DNA of 64,000 bases from Obrimoposthia wandeli. Lineage: Eukaryota. Below, one piece after another: positions 24,700 through 57,175 of this stretch (position 1 is its first letter; the number at the start of each line of letters is the position of its first letter). A model generated the notes under the pieces. The model made no database searches. It saw nothing but the letters and a program-made list of their open reading frames with translations, and was not told the DNA's origin. The stretch lies in assembly GCA_977020255.1 (NCBI GenBank), contig CDROCS010001087.1, positions 744,001-808,000 on the forward strand, read 5' to 3'. The position numbers and the translations under genes were made by a program.

Positions 24700-25260
24700 G
24701 TTTTCATGTATCTCTTTGACTGGAACAAACATCATATCTCATATCATTAACAATTTCTATTTTCGTCTGCCAGGAGTTGTGATTTGAAGTCATCAATACG
24801 CGATATCGGAAACATACTACAGGTCTCGAAAAGTCGTTTGCACCAGAAAGATTCTCTTAAGTAGGTGGATGTGTCCGGTCTAATCCACACCCCTCCCCCT
24901 TGTCCTTTAAAACCGTGCATGTGTGTGGAGTGAAATTTCGTGTAGGTGTGTGGAGTATAATTTCACTCCACACACATGCACGATTTTAAAGGACAAGGGG
25001 GGTCCCAAATTTTTATTTCGCCCCCTTGTCCTTTAAAACCGTGCATGTGTGTGGAGTGAAATTTTACTCCACACACCTATACGAAATTTCACTCCACACA
25101 CATGCACGGTTTTAAAGGACAGGAGGGTGTGGATTAGACCGGACACATCCACCTACTCTCTTACCTTCCAATAAAATTATTTCTATCCTTTCGTTGGTGT
25201 ATCGTGGATAATTCATTTTTGACATATTGAATCAATAATGATTGTTAAGTCTGTACGAAA
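24700..25260 (-). mobile_element. Possible Helitron RepHel remnant, interrupted by the mini-Polinton
   Basis: After removing the insertion, fragments FYW..SGA..TFRDL..V..LLADE resemble the Helitron FYLRLLL..GPTSF-DL..GLL-DD region; weak. Confidence 0.3.
24860..25157. mobile_element. 298-bp non-coding mini-Polinton (left and right termini only)
   Basis: Starts AGTAGGTGGATGTGTCCGGTCTAATCC and ends GGATTAGACCGGACACATCCACCTACT, the same termini as 46067-57175; exact 6-bp TSD CTCTTA (24854-24859 / 25158-25163); two subterminal palindromes joined by a ~20-nt spacer. Confidence 0.95.
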
Positions 25261-34892: not shown

Positions 34893-35148
34893 CAGCGGTT
34901 TCCAACCTGTGGGTCGCGACCCCAACTGGGGTCGCCTGACAATTTGCCTGGAGTCTATTGTTGTGTCGATAAAATTATTATGATTTAATTATTGAAAATT
35001 TGTAAATAAAAAACATTGTGCCAATAAATTTTTTGTAGTTAAAATATAACAAATTGGTGTGTTGATAAAATTATTTTATCCTTGGGGTCACCGCAACTTG
35101 GCAAATGTTATCAAGGGGTCACCGCACCAGAAAGGTTGGGAACCGCTG
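34893..35148. mobile_element. hAT (Charlie-like) MITE
   Basis: TIRs CAGCGGTTTCCAACCT / AGGTTGGGAACCGCTG; 8-bp TSD GTCTAGAT / GTATAGAT (7/8), matching the NTCTAGAN Charlie target consensus. Confidence 0.88.
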
Positions 35149-35191
35149 GTATAGATGATCTATTATTAACAAAGTTCATGTTTACCTGCAG

Positions 35192-35423
35192 GATACTCGC
35201 CAAAAATCTACGGCGAGGCGAGACTCAACAACCAAGGCGCTGAGTCCCCGTGCTACCGGACAGTAGATCCCCAGGCCGCTCAGATGGCCTCGTCAGTGTA
35301 CAACCCGGTCCTGGTTCTGGCTGCGCCACATGCAGGCGCGGACATATACGGCACAACCTCAGGAGTGCCGTCACAACATCACCATCACCACCACTCGAGA
35401 GGAGCTTCTGAGCCCGTGTACAG
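35192..35423 (+). CDS. Host gene exon (cytoplasmic tail)
   Basis: cctgcag acceptor, gtgagt donor; phase 1 to 2; (G)YSPKIYGEARLNNQGAESPCY...HHHHHHSRGASEPVY(S) with no stop. Confidence 0.8.
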
Positions 35424-35593
35424 GTGAGTGAAAATTCCTTGTACGGACACAGGTACAGGGATAGGAGAATGAAATCACCTAAAACACGAATTGTAAGATT
35501 CAAAATCATGTCAATACAGATGTGTCTATTTAAGGAATAATTACAAAATTAATAATACCTCAATTAACTCGCCTGAAGCTGCGGTTCCGACAG

Positions 35594-36018
35594 CAGATAT
35601 TCGAATCTGAGCTCGGTGGACCGCGGCTCTCTAAGTCCAGAGCCACGCTTCTTCCCGAGCTCCGTCTCCTATTATCAGCAAGCGGTAGCCCCCGGTGGGG
35701 GCTCATCCACGATGCGCCTGTGTGCAACAACCAAGCGACAGCAGCAGCAGCATCAGCAGCAGCAACAACAACAACAACAGCCGCAGCAGCATGGAGTTTC
35801 ACCTGCAGTCGGTCCCGGTCAACCGGGAGCGGTGATCGTCAACTTTCACTCGCCACGACACCACAACAACCCCGACAGCGCGGTAGCAGAAGATGTCCAT
35901 CTCAACAGCCGCACGCTACCGCGTTCTTCTTCACTGGCGCGCTTCTACGAGAAGAACAACAATGTACGGCTGGCCAGTACCAGTCATCACGCAGGCTTGT
36001 CGGCGACTCCACTCTCAG
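35594..36018 (+). CDS. Host gene exon (polyQ-containing cytoplasmic tail)
   Basis: gacag acceptor in phase 2 continues the frame: SRYSNLSSVDRGSLSPEPRFF..QQQ..RTLPRSSSL..TPLS; donor G|GTGACT at 36019. Confidence 0.8.
35739..35789 (+). repeat. CAG/CAA coding trinucleotide repeat (polyQ)
   Basis: cagcagcagcagcatcagcagcagcaacaacaacaacaacagccgcagcag, in frame with the host exon. Confidence 0.9.
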
Positions 36019-36139
36019 GTGACTATGTATCCTATTTGGTAGAAGCTGTCGAACCTGCACTTTGACAATTTCGTTTAGTTTTATGTATATTTATGCACTT
36101 GTTTTTAAAAATGTTTACCTAATAAAAGAGTTATTAAAT

Positions 36140-36324
36140 AGTAGGTGGATGTGTCCGGTCTAATCCACACCCCCCTCCCCCCCTTGTCCTTTAAAACCGT
36201 GCATGTGTGTGGAGTGAAATTTCGTGTAGGTGTGTGGAGTGAAATTTCACTCCACACACATGCACGGTTTTAAAGGACAGGGGGGGGAGGGGGGTGTGGA
36301 TTATACCGGACACATCCACCTACT
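36140..36324. mobile_element. 185-bp near-palindromic mini-Polinton
   Basis: AGTAGG...CCTACT termini as in 46067-57175; a single central palindrome; exact 6-bp TSD TTAAAT (36134-36139 / 36325-36330). Confidence 0.95.
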
Positions 36325-36339
36325 TTAAATGTATTTTAA

Positions 36340-36660
36340 ATGCGCCTTATAATATGGTGCGCTTTATGTGTGAAAAATACCTGTTCATAGAGTATGCACC
36401 TTATAACCAGGTGCGGCTTATCGTCTCGAAATACGTTATATTATTACATTACAACAAATATAGCTCTAAAATCTATTTACACACAGTACAAATGTCGGAT
36501 GTGATAAATCGTTGTTTTCGTGCGTCTTATCCGTGGGTAAATGCGGTTATTGATATATTTTAAAGCTATATTTCTTGTAATGTAATAATATACCGTATTT
36601 TCGGGACGATAAGCCGCGCCCTATATGAACAGGTATTTTTTCAATTGTAATATATTTTTA
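36340..36660. mobile_element. pogo/Tc2-like MITE fragments
   Basis: A right end CGGCTTATCGTCTCGAAATACG (~36414-36435) and a left end TACCGTATTTTCGGGACGATAAGCCGCG (36591) that are reverse complements; internal GCGCCTTATA-type repeats. Confidence 0.55.
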
Positions 36661-46066: not shown

Positions 46067-46350
46067 AGTAGGTGGATGTGTCCGGTCTAATCCACACCCC
46101 CTCCCCCCTGTCCTTTAAAACCGTGCATGTGTGTGGAGTGAAATTTCGTGTAGGTGTGTGAAGTGAAATTTCACTCCATACACATGCACGGTTTTAAAGG
46201 ACAGGGGGGTCCCAAAAAACGTTTTCGCGCCTCTCGGCGCGAAAGGCTCGGGACGGGTGTATATCACAGACTTCCTTGGGTGATGGATGTTAGACGGTGG
46301 GTGTAAGTCGATGAGTGATGGGTGTAAGTCGTTGGTGGGTGGTGGGTGTT
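46067..46350 (+). repeat. Left terminal inverted repeat with subterminal palindrome
   Basis: Core ~145 bp matches 57030-57175 in reverse; further similarity 46250-46350 to 56880-56975; palindrome arms 46103-46147 and 46165-46209. Confidence 0.92.
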
Positions 46351-46516
46351 GGTGACTACACATGTAGACGACCCGTGTCATACCCAAGACCCTAATACAC
46401 ACCACCCGCCCCTTTGTGGCGGGCTTCATTCTTGATCTCCAGGCACGAAAAACATTACAAAAAATAAATTATTTGAATAAGAGGCTCTCATTGGACAATA
46501 AAAGAGGGTTAGTAAG

Positions 46517-48388
46517 ATGTTTGTGTATATAAAGACACGTCCGTTCATTATTTTTCATAAATCAACAATTCCATTCTACAACAACGTTGACCTAGACGAA
46601 GAGACAGAGGTTCAACTCTATGGGGATCTCTCTCCAGTGCAGCAGCAAACGCCACCACCGTCGCAATACATTGACTTACATAGTCAAGACTCATCGGTGG
46701 TGAGCTAAGGAGAAGCAGCAGCAAGAGCAGACCTGTTGGAAGAAGAAGCCCCATTGGCCAGCTCAACTCCAAGAGAACAACCAATGGACGTGAGAGGCGG
46801 GGTACAGAGATCCCAATATATTGACCTGACAAGTCAGGATTCGATAAAGAATTGGGGAGACTGTACTCCCAGGCAAAACATAGAAGCTGTTCGTCCAGCA
46901 ACTTCGGCAGTAGCAGCAAGGAAATCCTGGCCATGGAAATTGATCCCGCTGTCGCAGCCGGAGAAAGTCCTCGCACCAGACTCAGACGAGGAGTTGTTCA
47001 CCGATGACGTTCCGTCGGATGGGGAGGAGGACTTGATTCCATTCATCGATGAATGGATACAGCCAAGTATTGGAGCCCCAGGAGCCAACGAGTCGATGGT
47101 GGCAGAATTGGACGAGGACGAGTTGCACCTGTTCACCTATGATAATAAACCTATGATTGGGATGGTCTCACTTCCTCTGCTACTCCGAAAGCGGATAATA
47201 CAACGCCTGAACCATTCAAAAGGCCGAAATCTCCTGTTAGGAGAATAAAAGCGATGAATGAGGTTAGACATCATTTATTTTAAATGTTTTTAATTTCATT
47301 TTCAGAAACTTCAACTAGATTTGGCACCGTCAGTGACCATGACGGAGAGGCTGATTGAACTGCAGTACTTGGCGAGTCAATGTAGTCAGGAGCTGCCAAG
47401 GAGTCAGCTCCGATACCTAACGTCTCCAGATAATTTTAAGGTAAATTATTAGATATTAAATTTAATAATTCACATAGATGGAGAACATTCTCGAAATGGC
47501 GACGCCTATTCAACCGGTGGATAGGAAGCAAGCGGCAGTTAAGAAACCGCAACGCCATCGGGTCAAAACCCACACTCGGAAGAAGGCCAAGTTGGTGAAA
47601 CAGGCTAACCTGCCCATCATTGAGGTAAAATATTTATATGTTTAAATGTTATTAATATTTTGCAGGAATCCGTCCAGATAATTGAGGAGAAATGGGGAGA
47701 AATTACTCCTTTCCCGCGGAAACGGACGAAGCGAGCAGAGATGAAGAAGGCGAAGCGCTCAAGAACATGTTCCACCTCAATTGGCCATAATTCTGAGACA
47801 GTGATTGGACGGCAGGAGATTCTCCCATCTCCAGTGGACGACGGGGCAATTCTATACGAGAGGATCCCAGTCTCACCGATCGAGATTAGTCCGCCATCAA
47901 ATCAACGACGCGTACAGGAGACATCAAATTTGGCCAGGGTTTGTGAGACTGCATCTCCAACAACCAGCCAAAACTTGAAGAGGGCCTGGGATGAAGCTGA
48001 ATTGGATGAATTCCAGGCGGAACTGGATACACCGGCAATGCTTCCAGATTCGCTAGGGAAACAGGATGCCGTCTCACGTCAGCTTCAGTGTGAGAAGGAG
48101 GAGAAACAGAAGAAAACTCCGCGGGAGAGGAAGACTACTGCTTTTATGTCAGGGCCATGAACATCGGCTGCACCTCCTCCCAAAAAGTTTCGGGAAATAT
48201 TGCCAAAACCTGAGGGAAGGACAATTGCTACAAACCAACAGGTGAAGGCGAAAAAGAAAACGGGCCGTCCAAAGAAGAATTAACCAGTACCGCTTTCTCC
48301 ATTAATACTTAGTCAGAGGGATTTCGATCCGGATGATCCCAATGATGACTTTGTAAAGATGTTTAAGAATATAATTTATAAAAATTAA
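46517..48388 (+). pseudogene. Orphan low-complexity nuclear protein gene with three introns
   Basis: Phase-0 introns 47263-47305, 47441-47477 and 47625-47665 join an open frame (..RPKSPVRRIKAMNE|KLQL..PDNFK|MENIL..LPIIE|ESVQ..); in-frame stops at 46706, 48158 and 48281 plus a frameshift near 47153; true start uncertain. Confidence 0.75.
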
Positions 48389-48605
48389 TTTCATATATTT
48401 TCTTCCTTATATTTATTTTTTTAAAAATTTTAAATTAGAAATATTAAAATACTATCTTTAAGTTTATTAGGTTTAAATGCAAGATAAGTTATAGATTTAT
48501 TAAACTCTTATTTGATAAATAAAAATATATCATATTATTGGATTAAAAAATATCTTAAATTTATATACATAGGTTCAAAATTATGAACCTCATCATAATT
48601 AAAAA

Positions 48606-48928
48606 ATGGAATTCATTAAAATGAAGAGTCTGGTAACGAAGATTGAAGCAAACATCAGAAGAAATGAGAAGAAATGGGACTTAAGAAAGAGGGTCCTCAA
48701 TCAGAATATGTATACTGCTGTCGCGACCGAGTGGAATCATCGGGTGGAGATACAAGATAGGAGGTTAGCAGAAAGACGTCGAAATATTGGAGTGGAATAA
48801 GAAGATCGAAATGGAAAAGAAGGAAGTGGATGAAAAAAGAAGAGAAGAGATGGAGGATAATCGTCGAGCAGCAAGAAAGAGAATCCTCCAGATTAAACCG
48901 GAAGAGGGTCCTTCTAAAAAAAATTAAT
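48606..48928 (+). pseudogene. Small charged coiled-coil-like orphan protein
   Basis: MEFIKMKSL..RRRNI then a frameshift to LEWNKKIEMEKKEVDEKRREEMEDNRRAARKRIL..KKN*. Confidence 0.55.
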
Positions 48929-49068
48929 TTTTGATTATTATTTTGTCTTTATTGATTATGTTACATAGGAGAATTGACAATATATACCAATCTTAACATG
49001 AAAGTACTTTGTTATTTTAATGAATTTTTCGTTATAAACAACGGGATTTGCTGCAAATTTAGATAATT

Positions 49069-49560
49069 ATGCAGGAATATATTATAGATTTTGAGGCTTT
49101 CATTAACAAAAATGGTGATTATATTATAAAAAAATTATGTATTATGGATGTATGCGACGTTTTTCATCCTTTGCATTTCATATTTCAAATAGATATCCCG
49201 TTTAAAAGTTTAGATTATAAGAAAAAATTTACTAATTTATATCTAACTAATTACCTTCATTTATTAAAATGGAAAGAAGGACATAAGGCTTTTTGTGAAA
49301 TATGTATTTTTGATACAATAACATTTAATTTTGATATAGAAATTGGATTTTTTTATGTTTTAGATGAAATGGATGGCAAAAAGTATAAGACTTTAAAAAA
49401 ATATTTTCCCAAATTGAGATTGAATACTTTAAATATTTCACGTGATCATCTATTAAAAATTCCACGAAATATTTGCTGTCGATATCGTAATCATGGTGAC
49501 CATTGCACATATTAAAAATGTTTAAGTCTATCTTATTATTACTTGACATGTAGATAAACA
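49069..49560 (+). CDS. DEDD/DnaQ-like 3'-5' exonuclease family protein
   Basis: ExoI-like IIDFEAF..IIKKLCI, LKWKEG, and C-terminal CRYRNHGDHC..KC; probable premature stop at 49513. Confidence 0.6.
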
Positions 49561-49747
49561 ATTCGTCTAATTCATAATTTTCATTCAATTACAAACAATT
49601 CTTTTGATTGGAGGAATAAAAATTATTTTTTCGACCATTTACAATCCTTCTAAATTTTTTTAATCCAATAGGAAAAGAGCATGTGTGCATAAATTTTAGT
49701 ATATAAGCAAACACTTTCTTCATTTAAATCCCCGACAATTTGAAATA

Positions 49748-52700
49748 ATGACTATTGTAAGAATCTATACTTATTATTTCCTTATTAATATTTATTATTT
49801 CAGATTACTTGTATCCTGTTTCCAGCATATTGTGGTGCTTCAGCTCCACATGGAGGATAGACCTGCATGGAGATAATGTCCGCCTACTATCAGACAAAGT
49901 CTCGAGGGCTTCACTTCTTCGTCTGCCCCTTCTGCAGAACAATGGAGGAAAAGGAGTTTCGAGTCTTCTTCGGTGAACATCGAGCTCATCTATCGTGTTT
50001 CACGGCCAACAAAAAGAAGAGGGATATCGTGCAATTGGTGCGCGATTCGCTGGCCGCACCTGCTCCAATTCCAGTTGCAGTCGATCAACCCGTTTACGGT
50101 CCTGCAATTGATCTCCTGGCTCCTGATTCTGCCCCATCCACTCAAATGACTAACAATGAGTGGATGAATGACATATCCCAGTCAGATTTCGAGATGGAGC
50201 GATAACTCCTGGTTGGAGACCACCGAGGAATTCGATTTCGTCGAGATAACGGACGACAGCTGGATGGATTCCATCAATGAAGATGACTTCATTCCAGCTC
50301 CAAATGTATTGCCTTCATTAGGTATTTTTTATTTATATTTTTTTAAAATTGTAATTATATATATTATTGTAATTATATTTTATTTTAATTTTTTATTCAG
50401 GAAATACCGTGATACAGCCGTCATCCGTTACGACAGCCATGCCTCCCCCATCGCGAGTGCCTACATCGATGTTAGCACGTCTTAGAGGTAATAATATTAA
50501 AAAATATATTTTTTTTTTAATATTTTTTTTCAGCAGCATTATCCTCTACAACAGCCGCTTCTTTATCGGCAAGGTCAGCTCCTACCTCAAATGCAGCATC
50601 TACAACTGCAGCAGCACTTACTTCAGCAGCATCTACTACATCAGCTGCGATTGCCTCAACATTGGCAGCATGTCCAATAGCAGCACCTTCAACCTCAACT
50701 GTTAATATAAATAGTTGTCTTCCCGTTCAATTAGGGGGAGGTTTGTCAGCGACTGTAGGAAGAAAGAGGCGAGGCCAATTTCTTAATAAGGTCCCACCAA
50801 AAAAACGTAGAGAAAACGGTGCTACTATAGAGTATTACTTAAATAATAAATATGTTATAGTTAAGGTGCCATTAGGAAATGAAATTTTATTAAACGTAGG
50901 TGTAGATTCAAATATTGAAAATCTTTTAAAATCAGAAGTGACTAAATTAGGACAGGCTAAGGTTCAATTTTGCGCAACAGTGCAGTTTAAAAATGTCAAT
51001 GAGGAAACTAAAACTTGGGTAATTTCACATAAAGCAACTGTTTTCTATGTTAATTTTGTAACTGAAATTGGAAGAAACCTAGATGAAAGAAAATTGCTAA
51101 TTATAGCGAGTTAAGTAGTGGATGGACTCTGGTAAGAATTCACGATGTTAGCTTTGTTCTAACAAAGTTCAATGACATTATATATCTTTCGTGGAGTTCA
51201 TATATTCCTTCACCTAGATCTCTTTAACTTTCACCTTCCATTGTTAACGTACAAAACAGTGATAACCTTTGCTTTCTGTATAGCGTGTTGGCCATCCTCA
51301 AAAGAATGTAATTATTGAGCACAGAGAGCGTGTCAGAAAATATACCCCTTTTTTAAATGAATTGCATTATCATGGAATAGATTTTCCTGTTAAATTAACT
51401 GCGATATCAAGATTTGAACACCTTAATAACTTGAATATTAATGTATTCAAATATAATACTGATATCTCAATTAATGTAACAGATGAAGAAATTAAAAAAA
51501 AACATTTTGTAGATGTAATTTATAGGAGCAAAAATGAGGAGACTCAGGTCAACTTCATTTTGCTCGAACATAATAAAAAATTCCACTATGCTGCAATTCC
51601 CAATTTAGATCGTCTTCTAAATTTAGATAATGGAGCCTTACCGGTTAGGATAAGGTGTAAGTGGTGTCATAGATGTTTGCATGGATTCCGATCCGAGCTC
51701 TCTTACAGCAAACATCTGACATTATGTTCACTGAATCCTGATGACAATACGCTATATAACATGCCTAAGGATAAGGATTTAAAATTCAAGTATTGGACAA
51801 AATGCGTAACCGTGGAATTCAGGGTGTATGCTGATTTTGAGTCAAATTTAGCATTGCACGATCAGTATGAGAGTATTCACATACCGGCTTTGGCAGGCCT
51901 ATTATTCTTAAGCCCCAATATTACACAGTATCATAAATCTTTCGGTCCAAATTGTATTTTAGATTTTATGTTAAAATTAGAAACAACAATTGTCAAACTG
52001 TGGTATGATCTTAATGCTCATCAAGCAATCATCATGACAGGCATATACTGGGTTAATTTTAATTCTTGTAGATTATGTTATTTGTGTGGAACCCAGTCTA
52101 AGTTAGTCAGAGATCACGATCCTGTTACGGGGCGATACTTGGGAGCGATGTGCAACCTCTGTAACCTTGGCCGTCGTCTCCCTAAAAAACCACGAATTCC
52201 CATCGTGTTTCATAACCTCAAAGGATATGATTTGCATCATATACTTAAATATGCGTTGGGTACATTAAGCTCTTGGGAAATTTCATGTATACCTCAAACT
52301 TCAGAGAAATATTTATCTTTAACTGCATATACTGAATTCTGCAGTTTAAGATTCATAGATTCTTTGCAGTTTTTGAGGGGGTCTTAAAAAATTTAACGGC
52401 ATCTTTAAATGCATGGCCTATCACACAGTCAGTGTTTCCAACTTCGGTTAATGATAAGGGGATTTTTCCGTATAAATTTCCGTATAAATTTGCGAAAACC
52501 TTTGCAAATTTAGAAAATACTACAGAAATCCCACCCATAACTGAATTTCAAAGTGTAAGTCTTCAAGACTATAATGACGCCCGTATATTTTGGGCGAATA
52601 ATTGTCGAAATCTTCTTGAATATATGCTTTATTATATGAAATTAGACATTTATCTTTTAGCTGATGTTTTTGAGTCCTTTCGTGTAAAGTCTTAAGCAGA

Positions 52701-54119
52701 AGATGGGCTAGATCCCATGCATTTCTTTAGTTTACCTGGTCTTTCATGGGCATCAGCAATAAAAACTCTTAAAATTAATATCGAGTTACTGCAAGATCCC
52801 GCAATGTATCAAATGTATGATTATGGTATACGCGGTGGAATGACTTTTGTCAACAAACATCATGTTTTCAAAAATTAATCCACGGAGATTCTGTACATCG
52901 ATATTACTAATTTGTATGGGTGGGCGCTTACTCAACCTCTATCTCATGGCAACTTTAAGTGGGTTTATGACGAGGAAGAGTTGAATAAGTTGATGACAGA
53001 TTTGGCTACTGTCGATACAGTTTCATCATACATCGGCTATTTGGTTGAGGTTGACTTAACAATCCCTTCCAATGTGCATGATAAATTAGATGATCTTCCA
53101 GTAGCGCCTGTTCATTAATCCCCACCTAATTCAAAGGTTAAGAAATTATTGTTAACCCATGAAGACAAGTTGAATTATGTTGTGCATTGGCGGCTTCTTC
53201 AATTCTACTTAAAGTTGGGAGCGAAAGTTACTCGAATTCATCGTGTTATAAGCTTCAGTCAAACCTTGTGTTTAAAGACTATATTGAGAAGAATTCTAGA
53301 AAACGTAATTTGGCTACTAGCAAATTCGATCGGGATTTTTACAAGTTAAAAAATATTAGTCTCTTTGGAAAAACTGTAGAGGACTTGCGGAAACGTATTT
53401 GTCTACGGTTTTGCAATGATGAGCGTAAATTAATAACATATACTAGCAAGTACAACTTCAAGCGTAGTTTTACAATTGCAGATGACTTGGTAGCAGTGTT
53501 ATTAGGAAAACAGAGTATTTGTCTCGATCGACCGAGTTATATAGGTCAAACGGTTTTAGACATTTCTAAACTCAGAATGTACGAGCTTCAATACATAGAA
53601 TTGGAGAAATATAGACAAGAATTCAATTGTGAGATCAAAATCGCAGCTGGGGACACTGACTCTTTCTTTTTAGAATGTAAAAATGTTAGTTTAAATAATC
53701 AATTATTACCGGCAATGTTTAGGGACAACTTATTAGATACACATAAATATCCCGCTAACCATCCTCTACACTCTATGAGTTTAAAGGATATTATCGGGAA
53801 ATTTAAGGATGAAAGCGAGAGACAAGTTTTGTATGATGATTGTATTTTCCTACGCCCTAAATCCTACAGTTTACATGCATCTAATAATACATGTTCAATG
53901 AGAGCAAAGAGTGTGGAAAGAAACAATCTTACATATGAGGCCTACCGGAAAGTTTATGATACTGGGTGTATTGAAAGCGTTGAGCAAACTAGATTTATTT
54001 CAAGAGCCCATCAACAGTATTTCCATAAATCAACAAAAATCGCTTTGAGTAGTAATGATGACAAGCGCTTTTGGGTAGAAAAGAACGCTAGCCTGGCTTA
54101 TGGACACTTCCGAATTTAA
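49748..54119 (+). pseudogene. Protein-primed family B DNA polymerase (pPolB) with spliced N-terminal extension
   Basis: Motifs HNLKGYD and FIDS (exonuclease), YIDITNLYGWAL (A), KLKNISLFGKT (B), GDTDS (C); N-terminal SGWTL..NVQNSDNLCFLYSVLA; introns 49757-49803, 50322-50400 and 50488-50533; multiple stops and frameshifts. Confidence 0.93.
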
Positions 54120-54314
54120 ACGGTTTTCATTTTTTGATTTTTTTAGTTTAGTTTTTTTAAATTTTAGATCACTATGGCACCTTGACTCTAACTTTTTGTT
54201 ATTTCAAAACAGTTTTAAGGATGGACCTTATCTTTGCTGACAGATCTCATTGTGATGTTGTTTTTAATAAATGTATTAAAAATAATTCGTCTTATGTCTT
54301 TTATTATTTTACCC

Positions 54315-54752
54315 TTATATTTTAAGGGATTTAAAAATATAATTCAAAATAAAACATTTAAAATTTTTATTTTTATAACACACTAATCGTTTTGCATAAA
54401 ATACATAAATGTCCACAGTTTCTCGTCGCAGGATCCTGATATTGTATCTTGTTGTAAAATACTCTTCTTCGTCCTTTTTGAATAGTTGAAACAAGTTTGT
54501 GTGGATAATACATTGCAAGTGGATCAAATACATTATTGTCCACTCTCTAACATAAATAGCTATCCAATGTTCTCCTGGTAAATTCGAAGTATGAGTATTG
54601 ATAATGTATCCTCCAGATTGAAAAAATGGAATCATATCAATAGGATAAACTCCATTGAATTTATCACCCAAGACCTTCTCTGTTAATTCTTGTACTTGTA
54701 CTGAACTAAATAAAAATTAATAAATATAAATTTAAAAAATATCTTACTTAAT
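54315..54752 (-). pseudogene. Adenain-like cysteine protease (Polinton PRO)
   Basis: GVYPID..IINTHTSNLPGEHWIAI (His), VFDPLA (Asp) and, after frameshifts, QYQDPATRNCGHLC (Cys); 42-nt intron 54706-54747 near the start; start codon appears lost. Confidence 0.85.
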
Positions 54753-54859
54753 TCTATAATATGACAGTTCTGTTTTTATTTATTTAGGTAAAACATTATC
54801 AAATTCATCAAACGCTTTTTGCCTTATTTTAAGCTTTTATGGTTTTTATTGTATGGGTT

Positions 54860-55409
54860 TCAAAGGTATTTCTGTTTAAACCAATTGTTTTTAGCGAGTT
54901 TATCATCAAATAAAACTCGTATTATATTGCTCTTTACTGTAAACGTTATTTTACTATTTTTCAATGTTAAACATTTATCGAAATATTCACTACATTCCTT
55001 CTGTATTAATTTACAGAAATTCACTTCACTATCTAATTTATAATCTTTTGAAAACATTTTCAGTTCCACTACATATTCAAACATGCATTTTTCTTTCATT
55101 TTCTCTGCAGTTTTAAAAAGATTTATCTGTTTCCTAAGATTAGCCGAAATCGTGATTGATTGTATTGCAGTGATTCGAATTCCAAATGGTAAATTGAACC
55201 CAAGCATTGGTATTTTGCATCCCATAACACGACAATTTCCTAAAATAATTCAATATGAAAATAAAATAATAAAACTAACCTGTAGGAAAAATAACAACTG
55301 TAAAATTGTCAAACATTTCCACATATTGTCTCGGCTTCCATTCATTGAATGGTAAGTACGAAACATCATCTTCTGTTCTATCTTTATAATTTATATTTAC
55401 GAGTTTCAT
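54860..55409 (-). CDS. TATA-box-binding-protein-like protein (divergent)
   Basis: ATG at 55409; phase-1 intron 55240-55279 gives MKLVNINYK..KPRQYV..TVVIFPTG|NCRVMGCK..IQSITISANLRKQINL..CMFE, collinear with TBP QLQNIVST..TALIFSSGKMVCTGAK..IQNMVGSCDVKFPIRL..SYE; C-terminal part does not resemble TBP. Confidence 0.6.
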
Positions 55410-55624
55410 TAGACTAAAATTGTATTCTGTAAATTCTTCTTTATATATGTCTGAACCTGTTTTTTATTGCACATTTCTTGTAATTATCTTGCAAACCTAT
55501 TATAATTGGATGATATATTTAATCCAATCAAATTCAATGCTTTAGTTATATTAACCAATGAGATTCATGTCTTTGTTAGAAATTAGTATAAAAGAATGCG
55601 CCATTGGAGGACAAATCACAGTAA

Positions 55625-56109
55625 ATGCATTCATATCAAAGACAATTATCAACAATGGATGATAGCCAACGGGTATTAAGCGGTGACGAAGATTCGGAAA
55701 TATTTGAAGAATCGGATAAGGATATGTATGAAGAAGTGAAACAGTATTTCAAATACAAAGTCAGATTCTTGAAGAAGGCTCAACTGATTGCTTTAGTTAA
55801 TCCTGTGACAATTGAAAGAAGAAAGTTCAGCTACTATCTATCAGGTATTCAAAAACCTGATTTTCAATATCTTAAACAGAAAATAGAAAAGACAGTTCCA
55901 AATTTTACTTTCAATAAGAACGAATTTTATATCCGAGGACCAGATTTCTAGCATTTCTAGATGACTATGGAAGATATGTTGATATTGATGCGTTTCCGAA
56001 AAAGAAGCAATGGACTGTAACAATTCGACTTTATGGTTACAAGAAAGATGAAATTGGAACAAAGTTGCCTATGTGGAAAATTGAACGTGCTCATATTTCT
56101 ATGTTTTAA
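55625..56109 (+). pseudogene. Putative OB-fold ssDNA-binding protein, paralog A
   Basis: Frameshift near 55950; clear similarity to paralog B; C-terminal WTVTIRLYGY..LPMWKI. Confidence 0.45.
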
Positions 56110-56246
56110 CTTTTGCATGTCATAAATTGTAATCAGTTTTACTATGTTTCTTTCATTTAATAATCAGTTTTATTTATTTAAATATTTGTATCTTATATGT
56201 ATTTTTTTATAAACATTGTTTTTTTAATCAGTTTCCTTATTTTAGA

Positions 56247-56651
56247 ATGGATAAGAGATGTGTAGCAAATTTTTCTCATCCAGAAAGAATTTCAAAAGAA
56301 AAACTATGTAATATATTAAAGAGGCATCAAATTATACGAGTTATGAATCCTGTGAAAATATCAAAAGTGGAGAATAAATATCTCATCGAAATTTTAACAA
56401 CATCTGATTTTGATCAATTGAAAAATATTTTGGGATTTTACATTCCTGATTATGTATATGAAGGAAATTGTTTCGAGCTTGAACCTGATCCCAGTCTAGA
56501 TTTTAAAGATGATCTAGGATATTTGATTGCTCCAATTCTAGATGAAGAACTATGGAATATCTCAATACGTCTCAATGGATATTTTGCTGATGACGGGAAA
56601 ATGCAGCCTCTTTGGACTTTGAGTGAAGCCAATATGTTGTTTTATGTTTAA
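56247..56651 (+). CDS. Putative OB-fold ssDNA-binding protein, paralog B
   Basis: Intact 134-aa ORF; C-terminal WNISIRLNGY..G..QPLWTLSEA; the SSB function is inferred from pattern only. Confidence 0.5.
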   Translation: MDKRCVANFSHPERISKEKLCNILKRHQIIRVMNPVKISKVENKYLIEILTTSDFDQLKNILGFYIPDYVYEGNCFELEPDPSLDFKDDLGYLIAPILDEELWNISIRLNGYFADDGKMQPLWTLSEANMLFYV

Positions 56652-56789
56652 TAAATGTTTTGAAAAATAATTTTGAAAAATAATTTTGACTCGTATTTTG
56701 TTTTTTCTCCTCTAAATTATATAGATCTGACCGATTTTTTATCCTATAAATTCTAAAACTGACATAGATATTTAACATGTAAGGATATT

Positions 56790-56930
56790 CATCACTTTCA
56801 CCCATCACCCACCGATTTTCACCCATCACCCATCGACTTTCACCCAACACCTATCGACTTTCCCCCAACACCCATCGACTTTCACCCATCACCCAACGAC
56901 TTTCACCCAACACCCATCGACTTACACCCA
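56790..56930 (+). repeat. 21-bp tandem repeat (~7 units) in the right subterminal region
   Basis: Consensus CATCGACTTTCACCCA(A/T)CACC; ~3 inverted copies at ~46287-46345 in the left end. Confidence 0.9.
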
Positions 56931-57175
56931 CCGTTCAACATCCATCACCCAAGGAAGTATGTGAAATACACCCGTCCCAAGCCTTTCCAATACAAGCCTT
57001 TCCAATACACCCGTCCCAAATGTTTTTTCGGACCCTCCCTCCTGTCCTTTAAAACCGTGCATGTGTGTGGAGTGAAATTTCACTCCACACCTACACGAAA
57101 TTTCACTCCACACACTTACACGGTTTTTAGACAGGGGGGAGGGGGTGTGGATTAGACCGGACACATCCACCTACT
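56880..57175 (-). repeat. Right terminal inverted repeat with subterminal palindrome
   Basis: Reverse complement of the left end; ends ...GGACACATCCACCTACT. Confidence 0.92.

Follow-up and report, generated by a model that had tools for sequence, protein, structure and literature searches.

A 185-bp hairpin unit of Obrimoposthia wandeli is an end-only derivative of a Maverick/Polinton with palindromic terminal inverted repeats

Solo-LTRs are the product of a collapse that keeps the target site duplication (TSD), and in copy-back or snap-back defective viral genomes a terminus is joined to its own complement. A 185-bp hairpin unit of Obrimoposthia wandeli, found in a 64,000-nucleotide stretch of contig CDROCS010001087.1 (assembly GCA_977020255.1, positions 744,001 to 808,000; here called the window), resembles both, having kept its TSD like a solo-LTR and joining a terminus to that terminus's complement like a copy-back genome. 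Unlike solo-LTRs, it has a direct repeat of only about 45 to 50 bp, which it owes to a palindrome. Copy-back viral genomes involve free replication and helper interference, whereas this unit is known here from genomic sequence.

Small two-ended derivatives have also been described for DNA transposons. In PMC3814204, mini derivatives of Ac, P, Tc1, Mutator, and mosquito MITEs are traced to abortive gap repair with microhomology joining: strands extended from the flanks copy the element ends, leave the template, and finish by microhomology. The MITEs Gnome, Elf, and Goblin arose through the same kind of interior loss at short homologies, for which template switching was proposed, and the terminal inverted repeat (TIR) of Goblin was lengthened by an inverted duplication of subterminal DNA, as appears to be the case here (excerpts of PMC3814204). 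Each of those families is described there as amplified from a founder; the units in O. wandeli, in contrast, show no founder lineages, have a Maverick parent, and are accompanied by many intermediates that copied host flank. The solo-TIRs of casposons (PMC4779613) and Galileo (PMC3573991) are likewise described, in the sections consulted, as TIR remnants arising repeatedly from full elements, but they consist of one TIR without a partner, whereas the 185-bp unit keeps a pair of intact, opposed termini together with both copies of the TSD. Finally, snap-back synthesis by Polymerase theta leaves reverse-complement insertions of flanking DNA at repaired junctions, the same kind of copy that we describe below; unlike in PMC5068794, priming here is fixed by a built-in palindrome, and copying continues past the terminus for up to 207 nt. 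A full-text literature search returned no title or abstract opening that dealt with two-ended hairpin minis or inverted-flank scars of Mavericks. Non-autonomous Polintons are reportedly described in the founding Polinton/Maverick papers of 2006-2007 and in Repbase, so the mini family may already be on record.

The unit (36140-36324) consists of two 84-nt arms (36140-36223 and 36241-36324) that surround a 17-nt loop and differ at two mismatches, at element positions 21 and 45. The original prediction had described a terminus, one palindrome, and an inverted terminus capable of forming a long hairpin, and folding bore this out: the DNA formed one hairpin of -107.1 kcal/mol (z = -28), which none of 200 shuffled sequences equaled. 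In order, the unit contains a terminus (T), a double C tract, arm A, loop L, arm A', a G tract, and T' (Table 1). A self-complementary octamer, GAAATTTC, forms the end of arm A and the start of A' and closes two tandem 25-bp repeats. The tracts of the window copy are full length on both sides, and its two differences are unmirrored. The unit is non-coding, without the length of 13 to 25 kb and the core genes of an autonomous Maverick/Polinton, and an Rfam search gave no matches.

The hexamer TTAAAT flanks the unit exactly at 6 bp, and no other repeat length from 2 to 12 bp fits; as a chance level, 51 of the window's 63,690 possible 185-bp intervals had an exact 6-bp flank repeat. The insertion interrupted a host repeat whose paralogues carry the hexamer only once, as seen in all five that we fetched (one with a substitution). 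Therefore, TTAAAT is a true TSD, as had been proposed. The loop sequence was correctly quoted in the original prediction, but the conclusion drawn from calling it left-type, that the crossover lay in arm 2, did not hold. Because T-A-L-A'-T' reads T-A-L'-A'-T' on the reverse strand, that strand carries the other loop, and a crossover in arm 2 becomes one in arm 1 when the opposite strand is read. Every product is thus left-type on one strand, and this symmetry rules out the loop type as a map of the crossover.

Table 1. Features of the 185-bp unit and its relatives in the window
Feature	Position	Strand	Evidence or remark
Left TSD copy TTAAAT, 6 bp	36134..36139	+	Exact flank repeat; single-copy in 5/5 host-repeat paralogues
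Maverick terminus T (28 nt) and double C tract	36140..36185	+	First 30 nt: 12,605 exact genome matches
Subterminal palindrome arm A, last 8 nt = self-complementary GAAATTTC	36186..36223	+	Inverted-repeat analysis
17-nt loop; with the next octamer completes second copy of 25-bp tandem repeat	36224..36240	+	
Arm A', reverse complement of A	36241..36278	+	Inverted-repeat analysis
G tract (junction side) and inverted terminus T'	36279..36324	-	Tract heterogeneous across copies
Right TSD copy TTAAAT	36325..36330	+	Exact flank repeat
Unrelated host repeat hit by the insertion; right end approximate	36059..36404	.	Paralogues compared
298-bp relative: two complete palindromic TIRs and short spacer	24860..25157	.	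TSD CTCTTA
11,109-bp defective Maverick, palindromic-TIR subfamily	46067..57175	+	TSD GCATAT

Upstream of the unit, the window contains a small element (34894-35148) with inverted ends and a near-exact 8-bp flanking repeat, which we take to be hAT-like, and a GC-rich stretch with His and Gln runs (35190-36030). Read by eye, the latter is probably exonic host sequence, which would likely place the mini in the following intron. On the other side, a 48-nt inverted repeat at 36429-36600 probably marks another small element.

The original prediction derived the unit from a larger element with the palindrome in its TIRs, and the window itself contains such an element. Termini of the form 5'-AGTAG...CTACT-3' are common to the 185-bp, 298-bp, and 11,109-bp members, each flanked by its own exact 6-bp TSD. 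The 11,109-bp element is defective: its pPolB is interrupted by stops and frameshifts and matches PF03175 weakly (E 0.002), and its comparison with a 17-kb member left the integrase, ATPase, and major-capsid stretches unmatched. The coding capacity of the family is better seen in two 17-kb members. Pieces of both match pPolB (PF03175, E 2e-12 to 2e-8), which carries an endonuclease VII domain, and both have a retroviral-like integrase (PF00665, rve; E 1.5e-12 and 1.2e-8) with a weak chromodomain match. The packaging ATPase (PF04665, Pox_A32; E about 2e-6) passes the curated cut-off, and a 197-aa candidate capsid fragment resembles double jelly-roll (DJR) clusters (score 0.96-0.97), with a recognition value of 2264 that falls below the tool's mark of 2300. 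Candidate ORFs that, by their motifs, may encode a cysteine protease and a minor capsid protein had no Pfam match. A 6-bp TSD with AG...CT ends was present in 3/3 window members, 2/2 17-kb members, and 5/5 further long members. The TSD length, end motif, and TIRs that the unit shares with Mavericks/Polintons, and the pPolB, integrase, and packaging ATPase of the 17-kb members, agree with descriptions of these elements in excerpts of PMC8097293, PMC6431247, and bioRxiv 10.1101/2023.08.22.554363. By these sequence features, the parent family fits the Maverick/Polinton definition, and the 185-bp unit is a derivative, made of end sequence only, of a Maverick/Polinton with a palindromic TIR.

The palindrome is a subfamily trait. 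A-L-A' is absent from the TIRs of both 17-kb members examined; unlike those members, the parent subfamily has a palindrome with 45-bp arms in its TIR, and the unit encodes nothing. Genome-wide, 3,516 palindromic loops mark this subfamily, to which the 11,109-bp window copy belongs. Exact copies of the terminal 30-mer number 12,605 across the 1.35-Gb genome (control, 0). Because there are this many termini, the sequence indicates a very large expansion of more than 6,000 elements, a figure far above the vertebrate maximum of 287 given in PMC8097293; in Trichomonas, Mavericks have been reported to make up over 30% of genomic DNA. There is at least one further family, represented by 1,010 exact matches to a 25-mer. 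Long non-palindromic members (L274-L283 and L067-L070) often have unequal ends, in the tract variant and the inner sequence, and a TIR of only about 100 bp. The palindromic TIR itself looks like the result of an earlier fold-back at GAAATTTC that was then amplified. In the 17-kb Mavericks, an ORF resembling TATA-binding protein (PF00352, E about 2e-11; best solved match 1mp9) adjoins the ATPase (L069:2325-2945 and L068:5985-6605); the literature search returned no relevant title on such a protein in Mavericks.

The unit is not a single-copy curiosity. A genome pattern requiring loop, A', and T' in order had 314 matches, a lower bound since the pattern skips even the window's own copy. We fetched the first 100 of these in contig order for classification. 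Clean minis of 168-199 bp made up 68 of the 100; their TSDs, exact in 62 and with one mismatch in 6, were all different, although one of the 68 lies within a TA run and is ambiguous. In 14 units, the sequence continued past the terminus into an inverted copy of the unit's own left flank; 8 continued into other element DNA, and 10 were unclassified. Among the best 30 BLAST hits, 23 of 29 two-ended copies had an exact TSD. A second class consists of loop-less minis of 144-163 bp centered on the octamer GAAATTTC. The loop-less pattern matched 109 loci, some of which are short versions of the 185-bp type (36 of the first 50 read as loop-less), and 29 of 35 fetched loop-less loci had a 6-bp TSD. 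Several size registers were seen: 144-163, 168-199, 201, and 298 bp. We also considered two-TIR units like the 298-bp relative as the main precursor and set them aside; a pattern for such units with spacers of 6-30 nt had no genome match, which shows rarity only, as this pattern also skips the window's own 298-bp copy. By itself, the 185-bp copy is thus an ordinary member of a large set of Maverick end-only remnants.

A site with both a full element and a mini allele was not found. The unique flank of the window unit occurs once in the genome, and an all-against-all comparison of 305 termini gave only duplicates in the same state. One duplicated site (contigs C176 and C369) has two filled copies, both minis, among 1,010 exact flank matches. 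Over about 27 kb, these contigs match collinearly at 97-99% and differ by many homopolymer indels, which points to redundancy and run-length errors in the assembly. Because of homopolymer errors, we did not trust the lengths of single-base tracts; the 7-nt difference between tract classes used below follows the loop on both contig strands.

If the minis descended from a common founder, they should share variants. We compared 66 minis of up to 192 bp with a natural reference end, having dropped two longer ones. Minis in general diverge from such an end by about 1% (1.4 substitutions per 132 nt); in this set, the commonest variant occurred in 5 of the 66, and none of the 2,145 pairs shared two substitutions. 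The original prediction had counted a lack of shared diagnostic variants against itself, but this result favors repeated independent origin. Taken with the heterogeneity of the junction side and the existence of the 144-163-bp class, it makes many independent origins of the minis the most likely reading of their sequences.

The junctions carry a further signal. Among 54 minis with a long tract on the other side, the junction-side tract was short, with about 7 nt lost, in 18, compared with 932 of 6,496 ordinary ends (14%; p = 6e-4); the reverse case, with a short left tract, occurred only twice (18 versus 2, p = 4e-4). Scarred units had short junctions in 10 of 20 cases (versus clean minis, Fisher p = 0.28), and both tracts were full length in 36 of 67 minis. 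The short junctions would be explained if the G run slipped onto the outer C run when synthesis was primed; recombination within the arms does not explain their excess. In addition, an ACT tract variant was present on only one arm in 3 clear cases (and 1 doubtful case) among 94 units read and in 2 of 29 loop-less minis. The same variant occurs on only one end in 4 of 5 long elements, which were picked by eye for asymmetry, and in 1 of 2 17-kb members. Because some minis carry different end variants on their arms, the sequences suggest that joining of two different ends also occurs. Mirrored variants were absent among 90 arm variants of clean minis, a comparison of low power in which the search anchor fixes 13 positions; as a test for fold-back it is uninformative, proven scars having no mirrored variants either.

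Direct traces of fold-back were found in the units that continue into inverted flank. In the 14 units among the first 100, T' is followed directly by 21-207 nt of the unit's own left flank, and 4 more such loci are among the best 30 BLAST hits, one of them identical to one of the 14. Because the copied DNA is the flank of that very locus, these units can form only after integration. The palindrome therefore primes fold-back synthesis on chromosomes. Most inverted-flank units rejoin the element just inside the TIR. Of seven non-mini units traced outward, four (three inverted-flank scars and one trans-templated unit) reach a far terminus with a matching TSD about 3-16 kb away; two had no far terminus in the fetched DNA, and one did not match. 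In L024 and L029, the whole interior is gone, both TIRs and an intact TSD are kept, and 93 and 91 nt, respectively, of inverted flank are present; L212 has the same structure with only 4 nt of flank copied. Some elements thus lost their whole interior in place.

Other units copied DNA from farther away. In L055, T' and 12 nt of flank were copied from a neighboring mini about 10 kb away, and L024 contains 129 nt copied from 1 kb upstream; both represent template switching typical of aborted repair synthesis. Like the scars, they point to a free 3' end that sets out from the palindrome and changes templates. L145 (2148-2303 and 4940-5128), about 3 kb long, carries fold-back scars with inverted flank on either end; the two are in different registers, and the TSD is intact. 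L141 (C420:40342-40815) consists of a hairpin unit, 125 bp of foreign DNA, and then a full TIR, and its hexamers fit a fold-back scar whose original left flank was replaced. The inverted flank copies differ from their sources at 15 of 967 nt. We discarded dating by divergence, as this value, the approximately 1.2% per arm site in minis, and the approximately 0.4% between the two collinear contigs are too noisy for timing.

We consider it reasonably probable that the 185-bp unit arose where it now lies, through host repair of a break in an integrated element with loss of the interior; repair of such a break is the simplest single account of the units. The break would most likely follow excision, which we assume, with abortive gap repair, or else stalling or cleavage at the hairpin. 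One idea is that pPolB cuts the hairpin through its EndoVII/HNH domain; nuclease insertions of this kind are already known in that polymerase. A single-stranded 3' end bearing arm A' and the G run could then snap back on arm A and copy the terminus, or anneal to the other TIR's copy of that arm. Pairing of the strand with the other end would leave a clean mini that retains the old TSD; if the strand ran into the flank and rejoined the interior, an inverted-flank scar would remain. The palindrome would serve both as a fixed snap-back primer and as a direct repeat between the ends, and outcomes would therefore converge on few registers. Clean minis outnumber inverted-flank scars by about 5:1, and no local feature proves that a clean mini was made in place. 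An intermediate that copied the right flank and then returned to the interior was not seen in 49 minis screened. The window copy may have arisen by either snap-back or annealing.

In its broad claim of collapse by recombination or copy-back, the original prediction stands in part: a copy-back trace is present in the 14 of 100 units with their own inverted flank, and end joining is suggested by the 3 clear two-variant minis, but plain recombination between arms fails as the only route. It did not include the Maverick/Polinton parentage, the hundreds of sister units, or chromosomal fold-back. Ordinary homologous recombination, in which the two TIRs exchange at their 45-bp arm repeats and neither fold-back nor repair synthesis takes part, would yield exactly this structure and keep the TSD, and the full tracts in 36 of 67 minis and in the window copy, as well as the minis that join two end variants, agree with it. 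It fails to account for the excess of short junctions, for the loop-less minis joined at the 8-bp palindrome, and for the scars; it is excluded as the sole route and as such very improbable, although it may account for some copies, the window copy included. Amplification of one or a few founder minis by Maverick integrase is also improbable, if somewhat less so. The minis do look like a MITE family, being short, two-ended, non-coding units with TIRs and a TSD, present in hundreds of copies about 1% diverged from the natural reference end; however, their lengths and junction tracts are heterogeneous, tract variants of the parental subfamilies recur among them, and they lack shared pairs of variants, a test that is blind to a very fast burst from parent-identical founders.

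Free copy-back genomes are a more serious possibility, though still an unlikely one. Protein-primed replication outside the chromosome would fold back at the palindrome or switch across paired TIRs, and a helper integrase would insert the product, creating a new 6-bp TSD. In favor are the two intact ends, the clean TSDs of 68 of 100 units, each different, and the presence in the genome of helpers with integrase and pPolB. Fresh junctions and a star phylogeny are expected; numerous copy-back products that arose independently during free replication would likewise form a star-like mini family, and arms from two different ends could arise across the panhandle. Such genomes cannot make the inverted-flank scars, however, so that an in-place route whose junctions are similarly distributed exists in any case. 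On the loop-5' arm, short tracts (13 of 67 minis) do not rise above the 14% baseline (p = 0.22) and give no sign of arm homogenization in a second replication round; short tracts on both arms were likewise ruled out as a sign of free replication, since 14% of ordinary ends are short. Were Mavericks nonetheless to spawn 150-200-bp two-ended hairpins de novo from the TIR palindrome, replicated and integrated by helper enzymes, which we regard as doubtful, these would be the smallest mobile form of a DNA virus-like element, and the scars would show the same self-priming end at work on chromosomes and mark Maverick excision. We give almost no credence to fold-back chimeras of long reads. The assembly does contain homopolymer errors, seen where two collinear contigs disagree at G/C runs, one of them in a mini arm. 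Against chimeras, however, stand exact TSDs that differ between units, paralogues without the insertion, scars that return to the interior with the far TSD still in place, and inverted copies that differ from their source; moreover, one scar recurs in two separate contigs, and the bias toward short junctions goes with the loop on either contig strand (13 minus, 5 plus).

The exit of Mavericks from chromosomes and the origin of their non-autonomous forms have so far been mostly a matter of inference. In O. wandeli, hundreds of remnants survive alongside dozens of frozen intermediates, each showing synthesis back into host DNA primed by the element's own palindrome, and the value lies in this set, above all in the frozen fold-back intermediates, rather than in the single copy. 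If the scars are footprints of gap repair, they would be indirect evidence of excision that could be tested by genotyping locus by locus. The remnants and intermediates also reveal a built-in means for a giant element to delete itself or to create local inverted duplications.
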